Shown: positions 26,630 through 26,700, counted from the first letter of the stretch. The stretch: 64,000 nt of DNA from Escherichia coli (GCF_013122565.1 NZ_CP053258.1); one strand, 5' to 3'. Notes: a model not told the origin generated them from the sequence alone. Translations and numbers: made by a program.

Positions 26630-26645
26630 CTGTATAAAACCACAG
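26630..26645. promoter_or_regulatory. LexA (SOS) box upstream of polB
   Basis: CTGTATAAAACCACAG fits CTGT-N8-ACAG; lies 4 nt after the araD stop and about 55 nt upstream of the polB start. Confidence 0.65.
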
Positions 26646-26656
26646 CCAATCAAATG

Positions 26657-26687
26657 AAACCAGGCTATAATCAAGCCTGGTTTTTTT
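26657..26687 (+). terminator. araBAD rho-independent terminator; loop contains a TATAAT hexamer
   Basis: 9-bp stem aaaccaggc/gcctggttt with loop tataatcaa, followed by a T-run. Confidence 0.7.
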
Positions 26688-26700
26688 ATGGATTTTCAGC

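Follow-up and report, generated by a model that had tools for sequence, protein, structure and literature searches.

The stretch of Escherichia coli DNA analysed here (GCF_013122565.1 NZ_CP053258.1; 64,000 nt, hereafter the window) carries on its + strand the genes araB (22603-24303), araA (24314-25816), araD, polB and rapA (29217-32123), in that order, and a gap of 74 nt separates araD from polB. The identity of the two flanking genes, as given in the original prediction, agrees with the ORF list and with the annotation of E. coli and K-12. Within the gap lie a LexA operator, a hairpin with the anatomy of an intrinsic terminator and, in the loop of that hairpin, the hexamer TATAAT (Table 1). 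The LexA box had been placed 4 nt past the araD stop codon and the polB GTG 14 nt past the U-run, and both distances hold: three bases separate the stop from the box, which begins at the fourth, and 13 bases separate the U-run from the GTG, which begins at the fourteenth. Similarly, the 9-bp stem and the TATAAT-containing loop described there can be read directly from the two arms. A spacer of 11 nt lies between the LexA box and the 5' arm.

Table 1. Features of the araD-polB junction, in coordinates of the window
Feature	Position	Strand	Basis
araD CDS, last gene of araBAD	25931..26626	+	ORF list; annotated araD in 5,400 complete E. coli genomes and K-12
araD stop TAA	26624-26626	+	read from sequence
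LexA operator (SOS box) CTGTATAAAACCACAG	26630..26645	.	sequence, half-site invariance, LexA motif listing in PMC3009722
Putative -35 region CAGCCA	26643..26648	+	spacing of 17 bp to the -10 hexamer
Hairpin 5' arm AAACCAGGC, also the proximal polB promoter spacer (-21 to -13)	26657..26665	+	folds
Hairpin loop TATAATCAA	26666-26674	+	read from sequence
TATAAT, both hairpin loop and polB -10 hexamer	26666..26671	+	invariant positions, mapped starts 7-8 nt downstream
Hairpin 3' arm GCCTGGTTT (26675-26683), merging into 7-T tract (26681-26687)	26675..26687	+	dG, stem conservation
Predicted polB transcription start, within the 3' arm	26678	+	K-12 TSS 65,803(-) carried over by alignment
Predicted polB 5' UTR, 23 nt, U-rich, unstructured	26678..26700	+	fold from the start site
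polB (dinA) CDS, DNA polymerase II, 783 aa, GTG start	26701..29052	+	ORF list, annotation, relatives 71-98% identical (80 genomes)

Two neighbouring features may be recorded here. Curiously, the gene directly downstream of polB, whose promoter is embedded in a terminator, is rapA, which encodes an RNA-polymerase recycling ATPase. On the other side, beyond araC, lies a yabI-like gene (20536-21300) and beside it, just outside the ara region, an ORF for an IS110-family transposase (19375-20355, + strand; Pfam DEDD_Tnp_IS110 and Transposase_20).

The complete E. coli genomes closest to the window match it at 98.5% over 551 nt and at 97.9% over 12 kb (about 2% diverged). The K-12 locus has the same gene order, 74-nt gap, LexA box, stem and GTG start of polB, but differs by four substitutions in the gap. 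The window has TAATAA for TAATGA (araD ends in tandem in-frame stops, the second being TAA at 26627-26629 in the window and TGA in K-12), T for C at 26655, TATAAT for TATACT in the loop, and a run of seven T where K-12 has six T and then G. The expectation that the arrangement would be conserved in K-12 thus held for the box, stem, gap and start codon, but not for the loop, which reads TATACT in MG1655. We counted the two forms in 5,426 complete E. coli genomes by exact 31-mer searches centred on hexamer position 5 (26670), and found TATAAT in 2,396 (44%) and TATACT in 2,927 (54%). TATAAT is thus one of two alleles that are common in E. coli. The same A/C toggle at 26670 recurs across genera, with TATAAT in 45 and TATACT in 12 of the 57 Enterobacteriaceae modules considered below.

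The LexA box, the loop hexamer and the polB start

The SOS box is a CTGT-N8-ACAG palindrome with an AT-rich centre. Direct comparison with the 20-mer consensus TACTGTATATATATACAGTA gives seven mismatches, which makes it a moderate box, and a search for this consensus with up to three mismatches found nothing. The CTGT-N8-ACAG skeleton occurs twice in the window, where 0.66 occurrences are expected, and two are also reached in 15 of 100 shuffles; because the bare skeleton is not rare, the reality of the polB box rests on its conservation and on the literature. As to conservation, the CTGTA and CAG half-sites are invariant in 55 aligned Enterobacteriaceae modules. As to the literature, the identification as the polB SOS box is borne out by Thomassen et al. 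2010 (PMC3009722), where polB is UV-induced and a LexA motif is listed upstream of the UV-induced polB transcript. The only other match to the skeleton in the window, CTGTTGCTGTGCACAG at 15916-15931, is unlikely to be a LexA site because of its G+C-rich centre.

Relative to the predicted start, the box spans about -48 to -33 and so overlaps the -35 region of a damage-inducible promoter. Binding of the LexA protein at this box is reported in the older literature. LexA sitting here, over a weak -35, would bar the polymerase until DNA damage triggers LexA cleavage, and we infer that this is how repression works at polB.

The TATAAT of the loop matches the -10 consensus at six of six positions, and a C at -13 extends it to CTATAAT. 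Upstream of it there is no good -35 element: the best candidate, CAGCCA, matches TTGACA at three of six positions (two of six in other genera), and shares its first three bases with the right half of the LexA box. CAGCCA is the putative -35 of this promoter.

The original prediction had proposed that the loop hexamer be compared with mapped polB transcription starts, and published data allow that comparison. Kim et al. 2012 (PMC3415461) mapped exonuclease-resistant RNA ends carrying a 5'-triphosphate. Their Table S1 lists a K-12 polB start at 65,803(-), with a 5' UTR of 23 nt and an upstream string ending in ...CCAGGCTATACTCAAGCCT; by alignment this is position 26678 of the window, 7 nt past the hexamer and inside the 3' arm. 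The entry for Klebsiella pneumoniae polB in that table, 69,499(-), has a UTR of 24 nt and the string ...CCAGGCTATAATCAGGCCTG; this start lies 8 nt past the hexamer of that species and again inside the 3' arm. Both distances fall within the 6-8 nt expected of a -10 element, with low read counts of 2 and 4, and many low-count intragenic starts are also listed in that table. The polB starts of the two genera nonetheless differ by no more than one base in their distance from a near-consensus hexamer, and that distance is the canonical one. Furthermore, the LexA motif in PMC3009722 stands at position 54 in the 100-nt stretch that precedes the detected polB transcript, which puts the UV-induced start about 47 nt after the start of the motif, at roughly 26676. 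The Cappable-seq and SMRT-Cappable-seq supplements hold nothing at K-12 65,800-65,805 or under polB or araD.

The loop hexamer is thus almost certainly a real polB -10 element. The case against it would have been polB promoters mapped elsewhere and a silent loop; the mapped starts instead follow the loop hexamer. By extension from K-12, which reads TATACT, the start in the present strain, which reads TATAAT, would lie at the same aligned position. A second two-read start assigned to polB in PMC3415461 lies inside araD (K-12 65,946, about window 26535), 166 nt upstream of the GTG; it is probably noise, and its transcripts would meet the terminator.

RNA polymerase holoenzyme would therefore, on the proposed mechanism, read the loop hexamer as the -10 and the 5' arm as spacer, and start at about 26678. 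As a start inside the 3' arm leaves the polB mRNA without the 5' arm, that mRNA is unable to form the terminator; it would retain nothing of the terminator but the final stem bases and the U-tract, and so would be immune to termination there. The label 'polB leader' of the original prediction is slightly off in this respect: the features it named are present, but the polB transcript begins beyond the LexA box, the 5' arm and the loop, all of which are promoter DNA. Folded from the start site, the true leader has z = +1.2 and is less structured than its shuffles. It holds a weak Shine-Dalgarno-like GGA (26690-26692), an element conserved across genera as GGA, GAGA or GGGA, 7-9 nt ahead of the GTG; the weak GGA and the GTG start fit a low-abundance protein. 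An ORF of 63 codons (26688-26879, + strand) overlaps the start of polB. Its ATG, directly after the T run, precedes the polB GTG by 13 nt in another reading frame, and is present in many genera, though not in all; what is conserved after this ATG appears to be the Shine-Dalgarno-like GGA/GAGA/GGGA.

To place the promoter in a wider context, polB was fetched from 80 species-representative genomes and the upstream regions were extracted. They include 57 Enterobacteriaceae modules, a set that contains the window and K-12. Hexamer positions 1-4 and 6 are invariant in all 57, and the distance from the start of the box to the start of the hexamer is 36 nt in 56 of them, whereas the 11 nt between box and stem and the last three bases of the loop are free to vary. 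In Enterobacter, Klebsiella, Leclercia and Lelliottia, extra DNA is found between the araD stop and the box, and never within the module that runs from box through hairpin to GTG. Judged from the alignments, the fixed box, hexamer and spacing have the look of a promoter-operator unit under selection. Palindromic, REP-like, G+C-rich inserts of 40-110 nt (for example CCCTCTCCCC...GGGGAGAGGG) occur directly after araD, always upstream of the box, in eight genomes of Enterobacter, Klebsiella, Raoultella, Leclercia and Lelliottia (L015, L016, L020, L023, L028, L029, L031 and L036).

Outside this family the surroundings of polB are different. Erwinia, Pantoea, Mixta and Yersinia lack both the hairpin and ara genes upstream of polB; there, polB is divergent from a VTT/DedA-family yabI ortholog that is 63% identical to the yabI-like gene of the window, and a LexA-like box lies 18 nt before a TATACT or TATTAT hexamer, against 36 nt in Enterobacteriaceae. 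Across Erwinia, Pantoea, Mixta, Serratia, Ewingella and Samsonia (L054-L075 and L078-L081) the polB box, CTGTATAAAnAnnCAT, has CAT and not CAG as its right half, and stands 18 nt before a -10-like hexamer. The geometry of operator and promoter in these genomes differs from the one in Enterobacteriaceae. In Erwinia persicina (L056, L057), the patterns used found neither box nor hexamer.

A CTATACT-type -10 with a degenerate -35 is reportedly a pattern preferred by sigma-S. K-12 and 12 of the 57 genomes read C-TATACT with a degenerate -35, whereas the window and 45 of the 57 read C-TATAAT, the sigma-70 consensus. Positive regulation of polB by RpoS is attributed to Dapa et al. 2017 in a passage of PMC6590174 that cites it. 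Initiation at polB is probably sigma-S-assisted in addition to being under SOS control. In natural populations the A/C polymorphism might move polB from sigma-70 to sigma-S control or back, and it may tune polymerase II expression.

Termination of araBAD and insulation of polB

RNAfold adds the pairs G26656-U26684 and U26666-A26674 to the stem, giving 11 pairs and a loop of 7 nt. The hairpin RNA has a dG of -16.1 kcal/mol (z = -5.7), and none of 200 shuffles folds as well. With a stem of 9-11 bp, five G-C pairs and then seven U, the structure has the anatomy of an intrinsic terminator, as had been claimed for araBAD. Its position is also suitable: araBAD runs in the same direction, and the stem, which starts 31 nt beyond the stop codon of araD, is out of reach of the terminating ribosome. 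A simple promoter and terminator consensus scan called neither element on the + strand; the terminator was missed because the maximal stem takes in part of the T run, and the loop promoter because of its poor -35. The scan flagged the same hairpin as a minus-strand terminator, a reading that we reject on account of its poor T tail and the lack of a converging gene. Rfam 15 covariance models gave no match with E <= 1 in 26300-27000. The 3'-end data of Adams 2021, from cells grown without arabinose, list only an internal 3' end in polB and hold no araD entry. The anatomy, together with the expression contrast described below, suggests that araBAD RNA ends at this hairpin: the RNA would fold the inverted repeat and terminate Rho-independently in the U-tract.

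The expression contrast comes from RNA-seq of a K-12 MG1655 derivative with and without L-arabinose under four conditions (PMC12299780, Table S1). The log2 changes of araD in conditions 1-4 were +11.3, +10.5, +5.7 and +6.1, and those of polB were +1.63, +0.27 (not significant), +0.78 and -1.84. Arabinose thus induced araD up to about 2,500-fold and left polB without a consistent change, in a data set where many unrelated genes also shift. Since polB, 74 nt downstream, does not follow a thousand-fold induction of araD, it is well insulated, and the lack of downstream co-induction is what a working terminator predicts. The pattern indicates insulation and not coupling, with room for a small effect.

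The original prediction had raised a different possibility, namely that the arrangement could couple araBAD termination with polB initiation, and this found no support in the comparison: polB was inconsistent (-1.84 to +1.63) while araD rose by log2 5.7-11.3 throughout. Coupling would make polB arabinose-dependent, since araBAD polymerases could boost it by displacing LexA or by re-initiating after release, or could depress it by promoter occlusion. It is the most serious of the alternatives that we weighed. The geometry is maximally favourable, with the -10 inside the terminator and the LexA box in the transcribed 3' region of araBAD; furthermore, single-molecule work has shown that E. coli RNA polymerase often stays on the DNA after intrinsic termination and re-initiates nearby (PMC6978380, PMC6978322, PMC11364550). 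The rise of polB by log2 1.63 in one of the four arabinose comparisons also points this way, yet polB stood at +0.27 (not significant) where araD rose by log2 10.5, and fell by 1.84 where araD rose by log2 6.1. Moreover, the promoter and the box are equally conserved in genomes without the hairpin or without an adjacent araD, so the promoter does not need the terminator. We consider coupling improbable.

Re-initiation deserves separate mention. RapA removes polymerase that is retained after termination (PMC10334767). Polymerases retained after araBAD release might re-bind sigma and re-initiate, providing an arabinose-dependent, LexA-gated supplement of polB that is limited by RapA; this, too, we hold to be doubtful, and the expression data make a large re-initiation effect at polB unlikely. 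The locus resembles the systems in which post-termination re-initiation is known in that a promoter lies within diffusion range of a terminator (here at zero distance), and rapA is the next gene after polB. It differs in that re-initiation has been observed in those systems, whereas the araD-polB junction offers the geometry only and has expression data that speak against a strong effect. On the preferred reading, that of insulation, the net effect would be a polB gene shielded from arabinose transcription and initiated under SOS control, all within 74 nt.

Gain and loss of the hairpin

A hairpin was scored as present, sequence by sequence, where a stem of at least 6 bp enclosed the hexamer; three long stems (L018, L044, L049) were scored by eye, the automatic T-run criterion having wrongly failed all of them. 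The hairpin is intact in 39 of the 40 genomes in which araD abuts polB, against 9 of the 17 in which the two are not adjacent, either because a gene lies between them or because araD is absent. Fisher's test gives p = 1.1e-4 for this association, and p = 1.6e-4 after obviously related genomes are collapsed; as about half of the non-adjacent genomes keep the hairpin, the association is statistical and not absolute, and the genomes are moreover related by phylogeny. The sole exception among the adjacent genomes is Pluralibacter gergoviae (L024), which has a gap of 81 nt and an intact box and TATACT but a hairpin decayed to about 4 bp. In that species araBAD may read through into polB or may terminate in some other way.

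Small genes are inserted between araD and polB in a number of genomes (L005, L009, L010, L013, L021, L027, L035, L040, L046 and L050-L053). They include a co-directional DUF218 gene (Atlantibacter), a divergent DUF4751 gene (Citrobacter) and others without a Pfam match; by similarity, the ORFs in Phytobacter, Siccibacter and Buttiauxella agrestis are probably DUF218 genes as well. The orientation of the insert does not predict loss of the hairpin, as both the co-directional DUF218 and the divergent DUF4751 genes are found in genomes that have the hairpin and in genomes that lack it.

Where the hairpin is lost, the loss is specific: in about six lineages without an adjacent araD, the 3' arm and the T-run have gone together, and the box, the 5' arm and the hexamer stay. 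Where it is kept, its sequence can change. In five genomes (Buttiauxella, Cedecea sulfonylureivorans, Dryocola and one 'Enterobacter' are the carriers) the stem CCAGGC/GCCTGG is replaced by GTGGTC/GACCAC, with TATAAT unchanged. A further genome (L026) has an independent A-U to G-C compensated pair, and two (L004, L009) have G-U intermediates. As a stem can thus be swapped for a compensated pair, it is the pairing that is selected and not the sequence. In an ungapped alignment, eight cells show two-sided changes against 2.9 expected, which is above 497 of 500 shuffles; other covariation measures on this alignment were non-significant because the main compensated clade pairs one register off. 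Ungapped pair counting therefore under-reports covariation, and we relied on per-sequence stem detection instead. We infer from these sequence comparisons that the hairpin belongs to the araBAD-polB junction, having arisen or been kept where a strongly inducible, co-directional operon meets the polB promoter.

It could be argued instead that the inverted repeat mainly serves polB, tuning promoter opening either as a cruciform in the DNA or as a palindrome bound by a protein, and that termination is a by-product. The module does travel with polB when DNA is inserted after araD, and the AACCAGG of the 5' arm is kept even without a 3' arm, but retention of the 5' arm alone is what is expected of a promoter spacer. 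The loss of 3' arm and T-run in about six lineages has left the promoter intact, and the exchange of the stem for another complementary pair in one clade speaks for RNA pairing, and not a protein site, as the target of selection. In addition, none of the polB promoters examined in Erwiniaceae and Yersiniaceae has the repeat. We regard this explanation as very improbable.

Least credible of all is that the loop TATAAT is a chance, AT-rich, silent loop, with the polB promoter further upstream and the hairpin acting as a leader attenuator like that of frd/ampC: a TATAAA inside the LexA box (26633-26638) does match the -10 consensus at five of six positions, a two-read start is listed inside araD and the consensus scan did not call the loop promoter. 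Against this, five of the six hexamer positions are invariant in 57 genomes, in contrast to the variable rest of the loop, and the hexamer remains in genomes that have lost the hairpin. In two genera, mapped starts follow the hexamer by 7-8 nt, inside the 3' arm and ahead of an unstructured leader. A strong leader terminator would also block SOS induction, yet polB is UV-induced. The TATAAA was also considered as a -10 in its own right and rejected, as it has no usable -35 and its transcripts would be terminated.

The junction among known systems

We hold with considerable confidence that the araD-polB region is a known control region in which a terminator and an SOS promoter share the same 30 bp. 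A strong stop for a highly inducible operon and a tightly repressed start for the next gene are thereby fitted into one short sequence. The K-12 polB (dinA) promoter, its LexA operator and the Rho-independent terminator of araBAD have reportedly all been described. The parts are already known for K-12, and their compact overlap is neat but not novel. No explicit account of how terminator and promoter overlap was found in the literature searched; the original sequence papers of 1990-91 lay outside that search and very probably show it.

What this work adds is modest: an invariant promoter, a conditional hairpin, a compensated stem and a common A/C polymorphism, and no new kind of system. Knowledge of polB, LexA and araBAD is unchanged by these results. 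The araD-polB gap nevertheless offers a natural worked example for compact genetic design, and a possible test bed for post-termination re-initiation by RNA polymerase.

The closest design analogue, also from E. coli, is the overlap of the frd terminator with the ampC attenuator. In both cases the gap is very short, and an upstream operon has its terminator within the control region of the gene that follows it in the same direction. The difference lies in where transcription begins. At ampC the promoter precedes the hairpin, which is therefore carried by the ampC transcripts and attenuates them, whereas polB transcripts, which start inside the 3' arm, escape it entirely. With the start placed in the descending arm of the terminator, the stop signal of araBAD and the start signal of polB do not interfere with one another.
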